From NCBI GenBank assembly GCA_963815215.1, contig CAWFFU010000011.1, forward strand, positions 224,001 through 288,000: a stretch of DNA of 64,000 bases. The letters run 5' to 3'. The notes under the pieces were generated by a model. That model was not told where the DNA came from. It did not search any database and was given only the letters and a program-made list of their open reading frames with translations. This document shows, in pieces, positions 7,463-54,511 of this stretch. This DNA comes from an uncultured Trueperaceae bacterium. Its GTDB lineage: Bacteria > Deinococcota > Deinococci > Deinococcales > Trueperaceae. Position 1 is the stretch's first letter. Each line of letters begins with the position of its first letter. Both the position numbers and the translations under genes were made by a program.

Positions 7463-7824
7463 GCGCCCTCTCCGAGCGCCTCGCGCAACTTCCCGACGGT
7501 CGCCCGCGCGGCGTCGAGCGCGCCGCCGGCCTCGTCGCCCGCCAGCACCAGGGCCAGGGCATGATCCCCGAGCAGCAGACATGTCAGGCGGTAGCCCGGC
7601 GCCCGCAGCGTGACCTCATCGGCTTCACCGAGCATCAGGCGGTTCGCGGCCGAGCGACACGCCTCCGCCAGCGCGCCCCCCTCCGCCGCCAGCACGTCGG
7701 CCCGCACGCCGTGGCCGATCATCTCCACCGGGAGGCCGTCGCGCGTCAGGACCAGCGCAGCGACCACCCCGCCCTCCTCGCCGAGCGGCGCCAGCGCTTC
7801 GCGCAGGCGCGCCTGCACGCTCAT
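7459..7824 (-). CDS. Roadblock/LC7 (MglB-like) protein 2
   Basis: GVVAALVLTRDGLPVE..ADVLAAE motif. Confidence 0.85.
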   Translation of the reverse strand: MSVQARLREALAPLGEEGGVVAALVLTRDGLPVEMIGHGVRADVLAAEGGALAEACRSAANRLMLGEADEVTLRAPGYRLTCLLLGDHALALVLAGDEAGGALDAARATVGKLREALGEGA

Positions 7825-7938
7825 GCGAAGCTCCCTTCGATCTTTCGGGCCGCGTCGCCGGTGAGCAGGCGCGCCTGGGCACTCATGCGAAGCTCCCTTC
7901 GATCTTTCGGGCCGCGTCGCCGGTGAGCAGGCGCGCCT
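7803..7938. repeat. 62-bp-period tandem duplication of a gene junction
   Basis: 57-bp identical direct repeat at 7820-7876 and 7882-7938; 12-mer GCAGGCGCGCCT at 7803, 7865 and 7927. Confidence 0.95.
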
Positions 7939-10074: not shown

Positions 10075-10878
10075 ATGAGCGACCAGGAACCGTACGAGGA
10101 CGTCACCTTCGAGAACCTGCGCTACGAGGTGGACGACGGTATCGCCGTCCTGACCGTCGACCGCCAGGAAGCCCTCAACGCGCTCAACGACGAGGTGATC
10201 ACGGAGCTGGCGATCGCCTTCGAGATGGCCGAAGCCGACCTCGCGGTGCGCGCGCTGGTCCTGACCGGCGCCGGCCGCGCGTTCGTGGCGGGCGCGGACA
10301 TCGCCGCGCTGCAACGGCTGGCCGACACCTTCGCCGGCCGCGAGGCGTCGCTCGCCGGCCAGGACCTCGCCAACACCCTGGCGGCGCTCCCCATCCCCAC
10401 CATCGCCGCGCTCAACGGCTTCGCGCTCGGCGGCGGGCTAGAGCTGGCTCTCGCCGCCGACCTGCGGGTGGCGTCGCCCCACGCCCGGCTGGGCCTGCCC
10501 GAGGTCGGCTTGGGCCTCATCCCGGGCTACGGCGGGACGCAGCGGCTGCCGCGCCTGATCGGGCAAGGACGCGCTCTGGACCTCATCTTCACCGGCCGCC
10601 ACGTCGAGGCCGAGGAAGCGCTGGCCATGGGGCTCGTCAACCGCATCGCCGACGACGCCCTCCAAGGCGCCAAGGAACTGGCGCGCCTCACCATGCGCAA
10701 GGCGCCCATCGCGCTCGGCCTGGCCAAGGAGGCGGTGGTACGCGGCCTGGACGTGACCTTGAACCAGGGGCTGGAGATCGAGGCCGACCTGTTCGGCATG
10801 GCGGCCACCACGGAGGACATGAAGGAGGGCATCAGCGCGTTCCTGGAGAAGCGCGACCCGGACTTCAGCGGGCAGTGA
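10075..10878 (+). CDS. Enoyl-CoA hydratase (crotonase)
   Basis: AFVAGADI, GFALGGGLEL, PEVGLGLIPGYGGTQRL; SD GGAGG. Confidence 0.93.
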   Translation: MSDQEPYEDVTFENLRYEVDDGIAVLTVDRQEALNALNDEVITELAIAFEMAEADLAVRALVLTGAGRAFVAGADIAALQRLADTFAGREASLAGQDLANTLAALPIPTIAALNGFALGGGLELALAADLRVASPHARLGLPEVGLGLIPGYGGTQRLPRLIGQGRALDLIFTGRHVEAEEALAMGLVNRIADDALQGAKELARLTMRKAPIALGLAKEAVVRGLDVTLNQGLEIEADLFGMAATTEDMKEGISAFLEKRDPDFSGQ

Positions 10879-10985
10879 TGCCCCACCCGTGACGCGCGGG
10901 CAGTGACGCGCGCGCGGTGGCGGCAGCGAGCACGTTGGGACGAGCGCGCGTTGAGTGCTGACGAGCCGGCGGCCGCTCCCCGGCC

Positions 10986-49964: not shown

Positions 49965-50714
49965 TCAGAGGGTGGTGACGGAGTAGTCGAGTCGCTCCTC
50001 GGACAGGATCATCTCCAGGAACTGGAGCTGGCCGAGGGCGTCGATCATCGCGAAGCCGTGGTCCTTGTCGATATAGATGCCGTCCTTCATGACGGTGTGG
50101 CCGTACACGCCGAAGCGGTGGCCCGCCTGCTGCACCAGCTCCGGCTTGTTGAACCACCAGGTCTTGGTGTCCCCGTCGTGATAGAAGAAATCGTCGAAGT
50201 ACTGCATGCCCGGGAGCGGCCCGGCGTGGGCGAAATGCACGCCGAAGAACACACGCTCGCGCGCGAAGGACCTGAACCAAGCGACCAGGTCGTCGGGCAG
50301 CGCTACACCGCCCAGCTCGGGGTTGAACTCGTCGTGACGCAACCCACCGCGAGTGGTGATCTCGTAGTTGTGCTCGACGGCCACTTCGTCGTGGTTGCCC
50401 AGGATGATGGTGACGTTGCCCCTGGCCTGGTCCACGAAACGCTTGAAGCGGTAGAGTTCGCGGATCTGCGCCTTCGCGGCGCGCCGCAGGTGGTCGGGAT
50501 TGCCGGGATCGTACGGCTCGACGCCGACGGCGTTGGCATAGGCGCGCTCGTCCTTGTAATGCACGAGGTCACCCACGCACACCACCTGGTAGCGGCCCTC
50601 GATCACGGCCGACGTAGGCTCGTAGGTGGGCGTGCACGCCGCCGACGCCTTGAGCACGCGCCACAGCTCCGGCCACTGCCCATGCACGTCGCCCATCGCG
50701 ATGACCTTGATCAC
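49965..50714 (-). CDS. PPP/ApaH-like metallophosphoesterase
   Basis: GDVHG, GDLVH, GNHDE, HAG, GHT; GTGA-coupled to the upstream gene. Confidence 0.85.
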   Translation of the reverse strand: MIKVIAMGDVHGQWPELWRVLKASAACTPTYEPTSAVIEGRYQVVCVGDLVHYKDERAYANAVGVEPYDPGNPDHLRRAAKAQIRELYRFKRFVDQARGNVTIILGNHDEVAVEHNYEITTRGGLRHDEFNPELGGVALPDDLVAWFRSFARERVFFGVHFAHAGPLPGMQYFDDFFYHDGDTKTWWFNKPELVQQAGHRFGVYGHTVMKDGIYIDKDHGFAMIDALGQLQFLEMILSEERLDYSVTTL

Positions 50715-51520
50715 GGGGCTGCGCCTCTGTCCAGCAACAGCTCGCGGAGCCTTCGGTAGAGTTCGCGGGCCTCCTCCGGGCTGCGACCGTATCCGCCGTG
50801 CTCGACGACCAGGGTGGCCGCCTCACGGCCGAGCCCTTCCGCCCTCAGGCGCTCGACGAGGCGCTCGATCACCTGCTGGCCCTCGCTGCGGCCCGGGCCC
50901 GTTTCGGGCGCCGGAGCCGAGCCCGGCCGCGGATCGGATGCCGCGACCGCCCCGCCGGGGACGTCTTCGGCGGGGACGTCCTCGGCGGGGACGTCCTCGA
51001 TACCATCGCTCTCCACACCACCGATCCCCACACCACCCGTCTCCACGCCACCGTCCTCGCGCTGGCCGTCATCGTACCGGCCGATCTCGCGATCGACCGC
51101 ATGACCGTCCTCGACACCGATCTCAGGCACCACCACGGGTTCCCCTGTTTCGAAGTCGAAGTCGACCCAGGCGCCACGCTCGCTCGGCGGCCGCATCCCG
51201 CACAGGCTCGCCGCCCTGCCCAACGCCCAGGCGCACACCCGCTCCACGGCGAGCTGCCCGCCGAACGAGCGGGCCACTCCGGTCTTGTGAACACCGAGCA
51301 GCTCGAGCTCGCACACCACCGCGTCCGGCCCCAGCGGCACCAGTCGCGTGGACCATCCTTCGACACCGAGCACCTGGTTCAAACGCTCCACCACGGCCGG
51401 CCCGCTCACCACCGGCTCCAGACGCGCGGTGCTGCCCTCTCGATCGAGCTGGGCGACGCACCAGTCGAGGGCGTGGGCGGGGAACGGTAGCGAGAGTCGA
51501 GCCCATTCGTCGCGCCGCAT
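50711..51520 (-). CDS. Rad52/Rad22-family DdrA-like DNA repair protein
   Basis: L..PFP...L.W, V.ERLN.V.G..GW, C.L..LGV.K; C-terminal LVERLRAEGLG..A..GGYG..PEE...LY; TATACT box 6 nt upstream. Confidence 0.75.
   Translation of the reverse strand: MRRDEWARLSLPFPAHALDWCVAQLDREGSTARLEPVVSGPAVVERLNQVLGVEGWSTRLVPLGPDAVVCELELLGVHKTGVARSFGGQLAVERVCAWALGRAASLCGMRPPSERGAWVDFDFETGEPVVVPEIGVEDGHAVDREIGRYDDGQREDGGVETGGVGIGGVESDGIEDVPAEDVPAEDVPGGAVAASDPRPGSAPAPETGPGRSEGQQVIERLVERLRAEGLGREAATLVVEHGGYGRSPEEARELYRRLRELLLDRGAAP
50957..51052. repeat. 15-bp coding repeats (EDVPA x3; GGVxx x3)
   Basis: GGGGACGTCYTCGGC units in the linker of the DdrA-like protein. Confidence 0.8.
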
Positions 51521-51689
51521 CAGCGCAGTATATCAGCGCCGCCGCCACGCTCAGGATGAGGTTTTCCTCGTCCCGAAGGGCCCCGGGGCGATCATCGGAG
51601 GAGCCGCCGGGGAACGCCGTCCAACGGCCCGTGCGGTAAGCTGGGGGCATGCACAAGTGCCTCGCTCGACGCGCAGCGGACGTGTGGAC

Positions 51690-51860
51690 CCCTGTGACGG
51701 GGAGTCGCGTGAGCGCGAACCTGTGAGCGCAGACCCGTGAACGCAGAGCTGTGAGTGGGAACCTGTGAGTGGGACCTGTGAGCGGAGACCCGTGAACGAA
51801 CTCGTGAACGAACCCGTGAACGAACCCTTGGACGACACTGGGGGTGGACCTGTGACCCGA
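51690..51860 (+). repeat. Degenerate 12-15-nt tandem array, core ACCYGTGA
   Basis: GTGA at 51694, 51709, 51723, 51737, 51751, 51765, 51778, 51792, 51804, 51816 and 51852. Confidence 0.9.
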
Positions 51861-51979
51861 CCCGAGAACAGACCGGCGCGCAACCTTGCGAGTGGACCCG
51901 AAGGTGGCACCGTGACGACCCCGCTCGCACGGACGTACGCTCGTGGCGGTTCCGCCCGACGCGCCTTACGCTCCCGATC

Positions 51980-54511
51980 GTGCTCATCGCGCTTCTCGGG
52001 CTGACCCTGGCGCCCGCCTTCGCGCAAGGTACCCCGGCCCAGCCGAGCCCCAACCCGCCCTCCCCCACCGTCACGCTGAGCGGGAACGTGCTCCGCTCCG
52101 GCGCAACGGTCGCCCTCGACGGCAGCGGCTTGCAGGCGGACACCGCCTACACGGTCACGGTCACCTCGCCCGACGGTTCCAGCGAACCGACCACGGTGCG
52201 CTCGGACGGCTCGGGAACGGTGCACTTCGAGCGCGTCCTGAAGCAGGCAGGAAGCTGGACCCTGCGGCTGAGAGGGCCGGGCATCGACGCGCCGCTCTCG
52301 GTCGAGGTATCGCAGCAACCCGACGGCGGATCGAGCTCCGGCACACCCAGCACGCCGGCGCAGCCGAGCGCCCCGACGCCCCAGTCGCCCACGCCCCAGT
52401 CGCCCGCACCGCAAACGCCCGCACCGCAAACGCCTACACCGCAGGCCCCCGACACGCAGGCCCCGGCGCAGACGCCCGACGCGGGCACCCTCGGCCTCGC
52501 CATCGAGCAGGGCAGCCTGATCGCCCGGCGCGCCGGGCAGGAGGTGTGGCACCTCGGCTTCGCCGCCGGCAGTGGTGACACCGCGGGCGTGCTCGAAGCC
52601 AACGGCAACGTCTACCTTGGCCACGGCAACAGCGTGCTCGTGCTCGATCCCGCGAACGGCCGGGTGAGGCAGCGCTTCGCGGTCCCCACTCAGGTGACGG
52701 CGCTCGCCGCCGGCGCGGCCGGAGTATCGGTGACGGTCACCTTCCGGAGCGGCACCCAGCAGACGCTCGAGCTCGATCCAGGCGGCATCCGCGGCACCGT
52801 GCGCTTCGGCTCCGATCCCGCCATGTTCGCCTGGCTGCACAACGAGGCCGTCATCGCCGACCCGGCCACGCGCCTCGAGCAGGACCCGACCAACCCCTGG
52901 CTGTACGTGGCCGTTGCCCAGCAGAACGCCGACGTCCAGGCAGCCGCCGCCGACTACCAGCGTGCACTGGCCCACGCCACGACCTTCTACGAGCGGGCTC
53001 AGCTCGCGCGCGTGTTCTATCGCGCGGGCCAGACCGACCTCGCCGGGCAGGCCATGGACGGCGCGCTGCGCGACTTCGTGGATCGCGGCTACGCCGCCGA
53101 GCTGCTGACCGATCCGCAGCTTCGTGAGGCCTACGGCTTCGCCCTGCCCGAGCTCGTTGGTGCAGTGCAGCACGGTGATCTCCAAGCCGCCGCCTTCTGG
53201 GCGCCCTGGGCGTATCGCATGAGCACGCCGGCCGTGCCGGCCACCCAGGCCGCCCTGCTCGACTACAGCCGTGCCCTGCGCTCCGACGGGCAACGCAGCG
53301 AGGCTTCGCTGTGGCGCGCGCGCGCTCACGAGGGCAACGGGTTCAGCCTGGGACGCGCCCTCGACCGGGCCGCCCTCGACCTGGGGCGGGCCGGTTGGTA
53401 CGGAGTGGCGGCGCTGCTGGTGGCGATGCTCTTCCTGCACTTCACCCTGATCGCGAAGTACTGGCGCCCGCAGAGTCTGGCCATGAAGCAGCGCAAGGAG
53501 GCCGGTCGCGGCATCGGCCGCGTCCCCAGGCTGTTCGCCATCCGTTACTACAGCTTCACGGAGAAGCTGGTGCTGGTGCTGATGTTCGCGGCCGTGCTGG
53601 CGCTGGCAAGCCTGGCCGGCTGGGCCGATCGCGGGGACCGACTGCCGCCGTCGTGGCGGACCGGGACCCTTGCCGCCGTGCCCGCGCGCGACGCTATGGC
53701 GACCGCCCTGGGAACGGGGACGGTCGCGGACTTCGTGCGCGGCTACGGAGCTCAAGTGGCGGGGGACGGGACCGCGGCTGCTGCGGCCTACCAGGCAGCC
53801 GGCGCCTACGCTCCCGCTCTGAACAACCTCGGTGCCCTGCAGGGCACGGACGCCCTCTACCAGCAGGCGCTCGACGCGGCTCGCGACCTGCCCGCGGCGC
53901 TCTTCAACCTCGGCCGCGGCACCGACCCCTCACAGCTGCATGCCAACTACGCCGCCAACGCGCCGCTGTTGGCAGTGCCGAGCGAATCGGTGCTGCGTTC
54001 GGCCGTCGCCGGTCAGTTCCAGGACGCGCTCGGCGCGGCGTTCACCAACCCCTGGGCGGAGCTGACGGGCTTCAACCCGCTGGCGACCCCGCTGTGGCTG
54101 TGGGACGCCTTCGTGGTGCTCTTCCTGGCGTGGGCGGCGGTCACCGTCATCTACCTGGTGATCCCCGGACCGCGCCTGGCGCGCAACGCGCCACGCACCG
54201 CGGCCTACCATCTGCTGGCTCTGCTCATCCCCGGCAGCGGCCTCAGCGACGAGCTGTGGGGCGTGCTGCTGCTGGTGCCGTGGGCGATCTTCGGCATCGA
54301 CACCCTGCTCCACTTCCTTGCGCTCGGTGCGCCCGCCGGCATCCCCCTCGCCACGGACTACACCGCGCTGGCGGTGATCTACGCCCTGAACATCGTCTCC
54401 TTCGTGGTGGAGCTCACCTCCTACCGTCGCCGCATGGCGACATTGCGCCGCTCCCACCCGGAGACGGCGCGGGCCTACGGCATGCGGGTGCCCGAGCGTC
54501 CCGCGGAGTGA
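51980..54511 (+). CDS. Large secreted/membrane protein (Ig-like domain, PQT linker, TPR-like helices, multiple TM)
   Basis: Signal peptide AFA-Q; 15-bp PxPQx repeats near 52370-52475; ALNNLG; C-terminal TMs; start uncertain. Confidence 0.75.
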   Translation: MLIALLGLTLAPAFAQGTPAQPSPNPPSPTVTLSGNVLRSGATVALDGSGLQADTAYTVTVTSPDGSSEPTTVRSDGSGTVHFERVLKQAGSWTLRLRGPGIDAPLSVEVSQQPDGGSSSGTPSTPAQPSAPTPQSPTPQSPAPQTPAPQTPTPQAPDTQAPAQTPDAGTLGLAIEQGSLIARRAGQEVWHLGFAAGSGDTAGVLEANGNVYLGHGNSVLVLDPANGRVRQRFAVPTQVTALAAGAAGVSVTVTFRSGTQQTLELDPGGIRGTVRFGSDPAMFAWLHNEAVIADPATRLEQDPTNPWLYVAVAQQNADVQAAAADYQRALAHATTFYERAQLARVFYRAGQTDLAGQAMDGALRDFVDRGYAAELLTDPQLREAYGFALPELVGAVQHGDLQAAAFWAPWAYRMSTPAVPATQAALLDYSRALRSDGQRSEASLWRARAHEGNGFSLGRALDRAALDLGRAGWYGVAALLVAMLFLHFTLIAKYWRPQSLAMKQRKEAGRGIGRVPRLFAIRYYSFTEKLVLVLMFAAVLALASLAGWADRGDRLPPSWRTGTLAAVPARDAMATALGTGTVADFVRGYGAQVAGDGTAAAAAYQAAGAYAPALNNLGALQGTDALYQQALDAARDLPAALFNLGRGTDPSQLHANYAANAPLLAVPSESVLRSAVAGQFQDALGAAFTNPWAELTGFNPLATPLWLWDAFVVLFLAWAAVTVIYLVIPGPRLARNAPRTAAYHLLALLIPGSGLSDELWGVLLLVPWAIFGIDTLLHFLALGAPAGIPLATDYTALAVIYALNIVSFVVELTSYRRRMATLRRSHPETARAYGMRVPERPAE

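Follow-up and report, generated by a model that had tools for sequence, protein, structure and literature searches.

A tandem GTGA repeat in the ancestral coding tail of a leaderless Trueperaceae gene and its possible passage by termination-reinitiation

The window, as the whole stretch analysed is called here, comprises 64,000 nucleotides from an uncultured Trueperaceae bacterium (contig CAWFFU010000011.1). On its forward strand, a -10-like box (TAAGCT, 51637-51642) is followed by an ATG at 51649 that opens a 25-codon ORF (51649-51726), by an array of tandem GTGA-bearing units (51694-51827), by a final ORF of 79 aa (51765-52004) and by a main ORF of 843 aa which, as callable in the window assembly, starts with GTG (51980-54511). 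All the coordinates that an earlier note had given for the array, the ORFs and the -10 box check out on the sequence. The main protein begins with a hydrophobic, signal-like stretch, continues through a linker rich in Pro, Thr and Gln and ends in a multi-span membrane part. Searches of Pfam and NCBIfam with this protein and with the divergently encoded 269-aa protein returned no family, a single chromoprotein match being rejected as far below its cutoff, and the only lead from Atlas, at 0.89, pointed to a Deinococcota 'TPR protein' cluster. Relative to the orthologue in the sister species G008, the second array-bearing lineage, the dN/dS ratio of the main ORF is 0.187 at a dS of 0.155; because the ORF is thus under purifying selection, it must still be expressed and reached by ribosomes.

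The TAAGCT box lies 6 nt 5' of ATG 51649, as the earlier note had claimed, and this leaderless promoter geometry proved to be the norm of the genome. The TANNNT-6 nt-start signature was found genome-wide, with TANNNT at a spacing of 6 nt in front of 112 of the 2019 long ORF starts, an enrichment of about 18-fold, while spacings of 10 nt or more gave counts of 1-12. Moreover, alignment shows TAAG[GC]T-N6-ATG, together with the first ~45 nt, to be conserved in 12/12 loci. In this comparative sense the leaderless start at ATG 51649 is real, and transcription would be expected to begin at 51649. A consensus scan of 51400-52100 for sigma-70 promoters and intrinsic terminators yielded 0 sites, such consensus being uninformative for the promoters of this phylum. 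A separate conserved palindrome near the array, at 51554-51573, was taken as the sign of a regulated region.

The array lies entirely 3' of ATG 51649. It consists of 10 consecutive GTGA units of 15, 14, 13 and 12 nt (51694-51827), beyond which are two further GTGA sites, the full set of positions being 51694, 51709, 51723, 51737, 51751, 51765, 51778, 51792, 51804, 51816, 51852 and 51912. TRF confirms the tandem, head-to-tail arrangement and resolves it into 6.3 copies of period 14 (51709-51795, 75% matches) and 4.0 copies of period 12 (51788-51835, 88% matches). A run of four GTGA motifs spaced 14 nt apart is present twice in the window, each time inside the array, against an expectation of 0.00 from 100 dinucleotide-preserving shuffles. 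The seven units of 15, 14 and 13 nt (51694-51791) form a zone that presents TGA in all three frames and in which alleles differ by unit-sized indels. They are followed by three 12-nt units (GTG AAC GAA CyC; 51792-51827; four units in one allele), which are in frame with the final ORF and place TGA in the +1 frame, and the period changes from 14 to 12 nt at the very point where the final coding frame begins. The earlier note had described the GTGA core as invariant and the intervening bases as variable; this holds within the array, except that the G of column 7 is equally invariant. When the two array-bearing lineages are compared, conservation of the GTGA cores does not significantly exceed that of the remaining array positions, with substitutions at 2/48 and 15/174 positions, respectively (p=0.24). 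The predicted RNA fold of 51649-51990 has no special structure (z=-0.05), and Rfam (evalue mode, 50500-53000) gave no match above the gathering score. A Guanidine-II match at 50953-50999, at 19.9 bits for a gathering score of 32, falls inside a coding 15-nt repeat and was taken as chance.

Read from its 5' end, the region forms a chain of overlapping ORFs. The first ORF encodes the conserved ancestral N-terminus of the large protein (MxKxLARRA...), now cut off by TGA 51724. It leads into the five-codon mini-ORFs VSADP (51723-51740), VNAEL (51737-51754) and VSGNL (51751-51768), each with a start that overlaps the previous stop and a stop that overlaps the next start in GTGA, and then into the final ORF, giving a chain of 25-5-5-5-79 codons. 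This chain, as far as the main ORF at GTG 51980, was borne out coordinate by coordinate; it is continuous in the window, with GTGA at every junction. The small ORF of each unit overlaps the start and the stop of its neighbours (-4 spacing), and each stop codon of the array is a TGA within a GTGA, hence overlapped by a restart codon. A further five-codon mini-ORF, VSGDP (51778-51795; MSGDP in the earlier note), holds a GGAG (51784-51787) 4 nt before GTG 51792 and forms part of the chain in the X1-, X2- and G008-type alleles. It indeed re-enters the 79-aa frame, since it ends on GTG 51792, which sits in that frame. Each 12-nt unit, like the two GTGA sites beyond the units (51852 and 51912), has its TGA in the +1 frame, so that ribosomes in two of the three frames would be returned to the main frame.

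In the window's own allele the last link of the chain is broken, since the final ORF stops at 52004, 22 nt past GTG 51980. The break is due to two bases (51950-51951) that shift the frame of the final ORF relative to the main ORF in the window assembly and are absent from the contigs of runs X2 and X3. In the X1 and G008-type alleles, the frame is restored instead by a longer segment near 51950 (28 nt inserted behind 51946), and the final frame runs on into the main protein in the X1, X2/X3, G008 and L021 alleles. Neither the 2-nt frame break nor the 51751-51778 unit pattern of the window was reproduced by any of three contigs (0/3 covering contigs for the former and 0/3 for the latter). Therefore, although the coordinates of the claimed overlap between the 79-aa ORF and the 843-aa start at 51980 are correct, the out-of-frame overlap itself is probably an artefact or a rare allele; a MAG frame error near 51950 would shorten the called protein.

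Five alleles were observed, in a comparison that includes two contigs with a depth under 5. Unit number differs between strains, by unit-sized indels of 12, 13 and 15 nt, and the GTGA chain is kept by different unit paths in the four other natural alleles, each ending in frame in the main ORF: 25-5-5-15-5-main in G008, L022 and L023, 25-5-5-10-5-main in L021, 25-5-5-9-5-main in the X2-like allele and 25-5-5-5-5-main in the X1-like allele. The array itself was found in independent assemblies, namely the sister species G008, L021-L023 and contigs of four runs from two studies. None of the 20 runs listed was an RNA run.

Comparison with relatives indicates what the array has replaced. It is confined to the window genome and one sister species (L001 and L002), whereas in 9/9 array-free orthologous loci (L003-L011) the same conserved ATG opens a single ORF (482-928 aa) that continues into the large protein. 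In all of these, the ORF behind TAAGGT-N6-ATG is in frame with the large protein despite differing tail lengths. Because the conserved ATG opens the large protein in all nine array-free loci, the array must sit in the gene's own ancestral N-terminal coding tail and not in a spacer. Instead of a dedicated leader that precedes a separate gene, the array is thus a lineage-specific insertion into this coding tail. The units resemble, by eye, the ancestral tail sequence found at the same place in L003 and L009. Tail repeats also exist in relatives, with in-frame periods of 9 nt (L009) and 15 nt (L008), and among the tail repeats compared the GTGA-bearing one alone has a period not divisible by 3.

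We propose, with a probability of roughly one half, that a slippage-made repeat is tolerated in the coding tail of this leaderless gene and that the protein is still made by termination-reinitiation from the 5' AUG. The gene codes for a membrane protein of ~900 aa, and in a single lineage slippage within its N-terminal coding tail, where constraint is poor, would have generated a tandem repeat of variable copy number with related units of 12-15 nt. Because 14 nt is no multiple of three and each such unit carries a GTGA, the ancestral single ORF has been cut into a chain. The 5'-terminal ATG ORF of 25 codons comes first, three to four mini-ORFs follow, each 5-15 codons long, and the last member is a final ORF, which is the reading frame of the main protein in all alleles seen but the window's own assembly. 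Ribosomes would load at the leaderless 5' AUG and be handed along by termination and reinitiation, possibly assisted by the G-rich SD-like stretches of some units. Such a relay is plausible but unproven, and both the translation of the mini-ORFs and reinitiation between them are things that we infer from sequence. It would entail four or five successive reinitiations with a loss of ribosomes at each, which speaks against it.

In simulations the relay survived 19 of 20 unit indels, and when the zone was shuffled the main ORF was still reached in 208 of 1000 cases; in silico, 212 of the 218 single-base deletions were absorbed. Since a relay follows automatically from any unit that holds GTGA, as the indels and shuffles indicate, its integrity is weak evidence of selection. 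A stronger version, in which the array is a selected, frame-resetting translational rheostat whose copy number sets the number of reinitiation steps and tunes, through slippage, the level of the membrane or surface protein without ever turning it off, is put forward as unlikely. The presence of GTGA in each unit, together with the +1-frame TGAs of the 12-nt units, may in that event render the start of the gene tolerant of frameshifts.

The most serious competitor of the relay is ordinary internal initiation. The array would then be an inert relic, the main protein being made by SD-dependent initiation at an internal GTG (51852, 51912 or 51792), the 25-codon ORF and the mini-ORFs representing meaningless uORFs in a leader of ~200-260 nt and the chaining by GTGA a mere by-product. 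Two candidate internal starts, both within GTGA, are indeed preceded at 4 nt by SD-like motifs: GGGGGTGG before GTG 51852 (51840-51854), which is identical in G008, and GAAGGTGG before GTG 51912 (51900-51914). Their pairing with the anti-SD presumably follows the general bacterial 16S 3' end. Together with the GGAG located 4 nt before GTG 51792, these motifs would allow internal initiation of the usual kind; those before 51852 and 51912 would provide a route as workable as the relay and could make the latter unnecessary. A start at 51912 would also be followed by a textbook signal peptide in the X2/X3 reading. The 30-nt and 12-nt in-frame indels between alleles indicate coding constraint only from 51792 onward, the cores show no excess conservation, and about a fifth of the shuffles described above yield a relay by chance, all of which fits an inert leader. 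However, the motif before 51912 is weaker in G008, where it is degraded to GAAGGCGC, and the organism makes wide use of leaderless starts. As the leaderless ATG and its promoter are retained unchanged, the 5' end would go on being loaded with 70S ribosomes, which would then run into the chain. Moreover, reinitiation is promoted by SD motifs as well (Huber et al., 2019; PMC6728339), so that their presence is compatible with either reading. Altogether we consider an inert leader a tentative but substantial possibility.

Two further explanations appear much less probable. That the 5' end is decaying, as in a pseudogene in the making, or that the array is an artefact of MAG assembly might be suggested by the TGAs in all three frames and by the two features of the window allele, the 2-nt break and the 51751-51778 pattern, that no covering contig reproduced. 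It is nevertheless very unlikely, given the recovery of the array from independent assemblies and a main ORF that is intact, with a dN/dS of 0.19 over a dS of 0.155. The earlier note had also offered an iteron-like array between divergent promoters, i.e., a protein-binding site on DNA, operator-like perhaps, or on RNA, in which the repeated GTGA would be recognised and one or both divergent genes controlled. Its appeal lies in a short core repeated 10-12 times in what looks like a divergent intergenic region, with the conserved palindrome nearby. Nevertheless, the array is 3' of the conserved start codon and is coding sequence in 9/9 array-free relatives, its spacing varies from 12 to 15 nt, off the helical repeat, and both the number and the sequence of its units differ between close strains. 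The other NTGA arrays of the genome have unrelated unit sequences, and the absence of an unusual RNA fold or of an Rfam match within the regions given above does not favor recognition as RNA either. A binding array is thus highly improbable.

Among known systems, the relay and the array that might support it can be compared with the MIRU (MIRU-VNTR) repeats of mycobacteria. MIRU units measure roughly 40-100 bp and belong to a dispersed family, apparently mobile, whose insertions fall at start codons between the genes of operons. In a review, they are described as head-to-tail repeats in which the small ORF of one unit is coupled to the next by a -4 (NTGA) overlap, with a copy number that varies between strains and an insertion thought to affect downstream expression little (Supply et al., 1997, cited in PMC12548453). 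The present array similarly has tandem head-to-tail units, small ORFs with -4 overlaps and copy-number polymorphism between strains, as in a VNTR. In contrast, its units of 12-15 nt are much shorter and arose locally, it is located inside the ancestral coding tail of one leaderless gene and not between two operon genes, as judged from the 9/9 array-free relatives, and no dispersed homologous family is apparent among the other NTGA arrays of the genome, whose units are unrelated in sequence. By its features it therefore resembles a MIRU-like kind of repeat that differs in position, unit size and origin.

Phase-variable contingency loci carry simple-sequence repeats in 5' coding regions. The array is like them in having a unit length not divisible by 3, a strain-variable copy number and a location in 5' coding sequence, here that of a gene for a surface or membrane protein, but no ON/OFF switching is apparent here, and no allele restores a single ORF. 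A phase-variable locus was rejected, as TGA is present in all three frames and the relay is kept in 19 of 20 simulated indels and in all four non-window alleles.

Termination-reinitiation at -4 overlaps is established and is enhanced by SD motifs (Huber et al., 2019; PMC6728339). The junctions of the array are comparable, with a 4-nt NTGA overlap at each and SD-like motifs before some of the restart codons. In known cases, coupling joins two real genes once, whereas here ribosomes, starting from a leaderless 5' AUG, would have to pass as many as five couplings in succession by way of throw-away ORFs 5-15 codons long. A literature search at listing level, covering sources other than subscription journals, found nothing on such arrays in Deinococcus or in leaderless contexts. 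If the relay works, 70S ribosomes that enter at a leaderless 5' end would, in a natural setting, be carried to a distant ORF by several reinitiations in succession, and the locus would show how a repeat whose period is not divisible by 3 can invade a coding region and the gene survive. The allelic series at this locus, with three or four mini-ORFs of 5-15 codons and one fewer or one more unit, could then serve to measure the efficiency of reinitiation per step, in a phylum rich in leaderless mRNAs. If it does not work, the locus is an example for annotators of a leaderless start displaced about 140-260 nt downstream by a VNTR.

Comparable arrays exist elsewhere in the window genome (G000), which contains at least four clean 14-nt NTGA arrays, each forming three 5-codon mini-ORFs between long high-GC3 ORFs. 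NTGA was found in 8/35 of its arrays with a period of 2 mod 3 as opposed to 1/26 with a period of 1 mod 3, and four DTGA motifs at fixed period occur at six loci for period 14 and at two for period 13. Both in this genome and in the family, surveyed over 61 genomes including the unpublished G057, enrichment of relay-compatible NTGA arrays is weak, and selection for coupling is not claimed because arrays of 14-nt period abound in both whether or not they contain NTGA. The period-14 pattern was found in 26/61 genomes, with about 180 matches versus about 119 for the reversed-pattern control (totals summed by hand), while the period-13 pattern, present in 17/61 genomes, gave 74 matches versus 116 for its control, of which 70 were in one genome.

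The window (G000:C11:224001-288000) belongs to a draft genome of 3.3 Mb and 70% GC in 14 contigs, in which positions 51521-51979 have the appearance of a 460-nt spacer separating two divergent genes. A 269-aa ORF (50711-51520) lies on the minus strand, and on the plus strand an 843-aa membrane-protein ORF, hereafter the main ORF, is callable from GTG 51980; the nearest clusters of its product are in Deinococcota (Atlas; a lead only). On the plus strand of the apparent spacer, a TAAGCT box (51637-51642) is followed after 6 nt by ATG 51649, which opens a first ORF of 25 codons ending at TGA 51724-51726. Five-codon ORFs overlapped through GTGA start at 51723, 51737 and 51751, and a 79-codon ORF (51765-52004) comes next; a side unit (51778-51795) ends on GTG 51792, in the frame of this last ORF. 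TRF delineates a 14-nt array of 6.3 copies (51709-51795) and a 12-nt array of 4.0 copies (51788-51835). The sequence and the ORF calls bear out each of the elements named in the earlier note, and its observation is confirmed. When the window was shuffled 100 times, the expected number of runs of four GTGA motifs spaced 14 nt apart was 0.00. Each TGA in the array lies within a GTGA. The 14-nt period brings TGA into all three frames, and three 12-nt units together with the GTGAs at 51852 and 51912 carry TGA in the +1 frame and GTG in-frame, relative to the final ORF; the 14-nt period gives way to the 12-nt one where the final coding frame begins.

Orthologues of the main protein are present in 31 of 41 related genomes, and in all nine other genomes of the same genus. 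Upstream DNA was taken from the 11 best loci, and reading frames were traced from the conserved TAAG[GC]T-N6-ATG. The array had been regarded as a dedicated leader or spacer element, a view that fails because in 9/9 array-free loci (L003-L011) the same ATG opens a single ORF reaching the large protein itself. This ORF crosses a variable Arg/Ala/Pro-rich tail of ~40-85 residues and then a hydrophobic, signal-like segment, and where complete it measures 879-928 aa (L009 is broken further downstream, L011 stops at the contig end and L008 contains a run of N). Since all nine loci preserve the frame despite differing tail lengths, the N-terminal tail is translated. In L014, a more distant locus, this promoter and ATG are followed by a short tail, and the TAAG[GC]T-N6-ATG motif was not found in five further loci (L012, L013, L015, L016, L018). 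Only one sister species (G008, locus L002; 93-95% protein identity) shares the GTGA array with the window genome (L001), and in both, TGA in all three frames makes the ancestral single ORF impossible. By eye, the array units resemble the L003 and L009 tail sequence at the same position. As judged from these comparisons, the array is a lineage-specific tandem repeat within a former coding region. Tail repeats of other species have in-frame periods of 9 nt (L009) or 15 nt (L008), and the tail is a repeat hotspot genus-wide. The L009 repeat consists of four 9-nt copies at about 660-705 of the oriented locus, and the 15-nt repeat of L008 is followed by the run of N.

TANNNT stands exactly 6 nt before the first start in 112 of the 2019 long, high-GC3 ORFs of G000, against counts of 1-12 at spacings of at least 10 nt; the TAAGCT-6 nt-ATG 51649 arrangement, previously described as leaderless, matches this leaderless signature of the genome. 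Alignment of the related loci shows the promoter and the start codon to be strongly conserved, along with the first ~45 nt of the gene. Within 51649-51693, conservation is genus-wide at the nucleotide level and includes synonymous positions, which points to a putative constraint on the leaderless mRNA 5' end besides the peptide. The same segment has three A/T-ending codons (GCT, CGA, GCA), unusual at 70% GC, and an AUGC...GCAU that could pair. The divergent 269-aa gene, for which no Pfam or NCBIfam family was found, is also leaderless in form on its own strand (TATACT at 51532-51527, 6 nt, ATG at 51520-51518), and this arrangement is conserved across the aligned loci. Between the two starts, an imperfect inverted repeat, GGATGAGG-TTTT-CCTCGTCC (51554-51573), precedes the minus-strand -10 box by ~20-45 nt and ATG 51649 by ~75-95 nt. 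Of the 12 aligned loci, 11 have it in almost invariant form, the exception being L014; in G000 it is unique, the next best site carrying 3 mismatches, and a locus-specific operator is its probable role.

Between G000 and G008, the main ORF has a dN of 0.029 and a dS of 0.155 (dN/dS 0.19 over 838 codons), which shows purifying selection on the main protein. Despite the cut in the ancestral route, then, ribosomes must still arrive at the main ORF. On leaderless mRNAs, 70S ribosomes begin at the 5' AUG (PMC9031893); they would thus load at ATG 51649, terminate after 25 codons on a TGA overlapping a GTG, and restart. A restart codon is in place at each termination because every array TGA belongs to a GTGA, and the +1-frame TGAs with in-frame GTGs thus funnel two of three frames into the main frame. 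Termination-reinitiation at -4 overlaps is a documented process that Shine-Dalgarno (SD) motifs assist (PMC6728339). The change from 14 to 12 nt at the final frame fits translation and is unexpected for a binding array. The iteron-like or operator array proposed as an alternative in the earlier note is rejected, as the repeat follows the conserved start codon and falls in what is coding sequence in the relatives, and its 12-15-nt spacing is off helical phase and variable among close strains; in addition, other NTGA arrays in G000 have NTGA alone in common. The interpretation given there is partly supported: the leaderless geometry and the unbroken GTGA chain stand, and the separate leader and the iteron alternative do not. 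A structured RNA was also rejected (no Rfam family; fold z-score of -0.05), as was classical phase variation, since no allele restores a single ORF and unit changes leave the path on in silico.

SD-like stretches lie at workable spacing before three internal GTGs, namely G-rich GGGGGTGG before GTG 51852, identical in G008, G-rich GAAGGTGG before GTG 51912, and GGAG before GTG 51792, and ordinary internal initiation could therefore yield the protein, the mini-ORFs being inert upstream ORFs. The chain itself survives 19 of 20 single-unit deletions or duplications and 212 of 218 single-base deletions in silico, and none of 120 2-nt deletions of the 12-nt zone. Such robustness is inherent in any repeat with GTGA in its unit and does not prove that ribosomes are handed on. 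Shuffling the zone 1000 times still left a path to the main ORF in 208 cases, because GTGA 51912 remains, and between G000 and G008 the GTGA cores show no significant excess of conservation over the other array positions (2/48 versus 15/174 substitutions, p=0.24), two results that suit purely SD-led initiation; against it, the GAAGGTGG motif is weaker in G008. The SD motifs do not discriminate between the two readings, as they favor reinitiation too. We consider purely SD-led entry a tentative though serious possibility, and assign a probability of about 0.5 to the reading that termination-reinitiation along the GTGA chain, alone or together with SD motifs, carries ribosomes to the main ORF.

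Unit number varies among strains, a comparison for which the earlier note had called, and a series of five alleles is available. Expressed as codons per successive GTGA-overlapped ORF from the conserved ATG, the G008 path is 25-5-5-15-5, followed by the main protein as a 919-aa ORF; two of the G008 units lack GTGA and stay in frame because they are 15 nt long. The 36-nt 5' end, used as a query, recovered the G008 allele in L022 and L023, and in L021 an allele with one 15-nt unit fewer (25-5-5-10-5-main). Window-type alleles came from Logan contigs of four metagenome runs (X1-X4) in two studies, aligned to 51400-52400; these are contigs rather than reads, X3 and X4 have a depth below 5, and one of the runs may be the window's own source sample. 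In the X1 contig (1004 nt, 51503-52400), the 13-nt unit at 51761 is missing, and one 12-nt unit behind 51802 and 28 nt behind 51946 are gained, the latter open, in-frame, Arg-rich and G008-like by hand translation; the X4 contig, which ends at 51884, has the same 13-nt loss and 12-nt gain. The X2 contig (586 nt, 51503-52091) matches the window without substitutions and is shorter by 1 nt at 51757 and by 2 nt at 51950, and the X3 contig (51859-52050) shares the 2-nt loss. With these indels applied to the window by coordinate in a script, the paths are 25-5-5-9-5-905 (X2-like), 25-5-5-5-5-909 (X1-like array) and 25-5-5-5-914 (2-nt change alone). Four alleles thus have a chain that leads into the main ORF. 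The out-of-frame ending of the window (stop at 52004) is reproduced by none of the three contigs covering 51950, and its unit pattern at 51751-51778 by none of three. The indels at 51757 (1 nt) and 51950-51951 (2 nt), the second of which cuts ~70 residues off the callable main protein, are missing from otherwise identical contigs of other runs, and each is probably an assembly error or a rare allele.

The closest described system is the MIRU repeat of mycobacteria, reported to insert at start codons, each unit carrying a -4-coupled ORF, and thought to spare downstream expression (PMC12548453). Tandem build, coupled mini-ORFs and copy-number variation recur in the present array. In contrast, it has neither the dispersed homologous family nor the position between two genes that define MIRU, since here one leaderless gene is split by the array. 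No account of arrays of this kind, whether in Deinococcota or in leaderless genes, came up in a limited literature search. What is new is the position in the N-terminal tail of a leaderless gene, the inferred ancestral state, the five-allele series and the switch of period where the final coding frame starts.

Four further NTGA arrays of G000 have the same build and are flanked by long, high-GC3 ORFs: C10:178798-178842 (upstream ORF of 540 codons, mini-ORFs 5-5-5, downstream ORF of 195 aa), C10:164598-164642 (326 codons, 5-5-5, 574 aa), C12:44720-44764 (299 codons, 5-5-5, 252 aa) and C3:697879-697982 (267 codons, 5-5-5-20, 766 aa). The upstream frame is doubtful at C7:12021-12108 (11-nt units, four 4-codon ORFs) and at C14:70393-70451 (NTGA in 14-nt units, 3-4 mini-ORFs). 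Unit sequences of these further arrays are unrelated to each other. Among the 228 TRF arrays of G000, 17 have a period of 13 and 19 a period of 14, whatever their NTGA content, and short arrays of these periods are unusually common both in G000 and across 61 family genomes, with or without NTGA; G016 and G066 have dozens of matches. NTGA is weakly enriched in relay-compatible periods, in G000 as in the 61 genomes (the family tallies take in the unpublished genome G057). Because this enrichment is weak and arrays of period 13-14 are abundant regardless of content, we would describe a slippage-prone genome that tolerates NTGA-bearing arrays, not a selected relay system. Elsewhere in the window, a small chain at ~10819-10905 (G000:C11:234819-234905) comprises an ORF end, two 5-codon GTGA-coupled mini-ORFs at 14-nt spacing and a 106-codon ORF. 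The 269-aa gene contains two adjoining 15-nt in-frame tandem repeats (50953-51053) encoding acidic motifs such as EDVPA; a Guanidine-II Rfam match on the first (19.9 bits, below threshold) was taken as chance. The window's strongest TRF row is a 62-nt tandem repeat at 7803-7938, with 2.2 copies and 95% matches.
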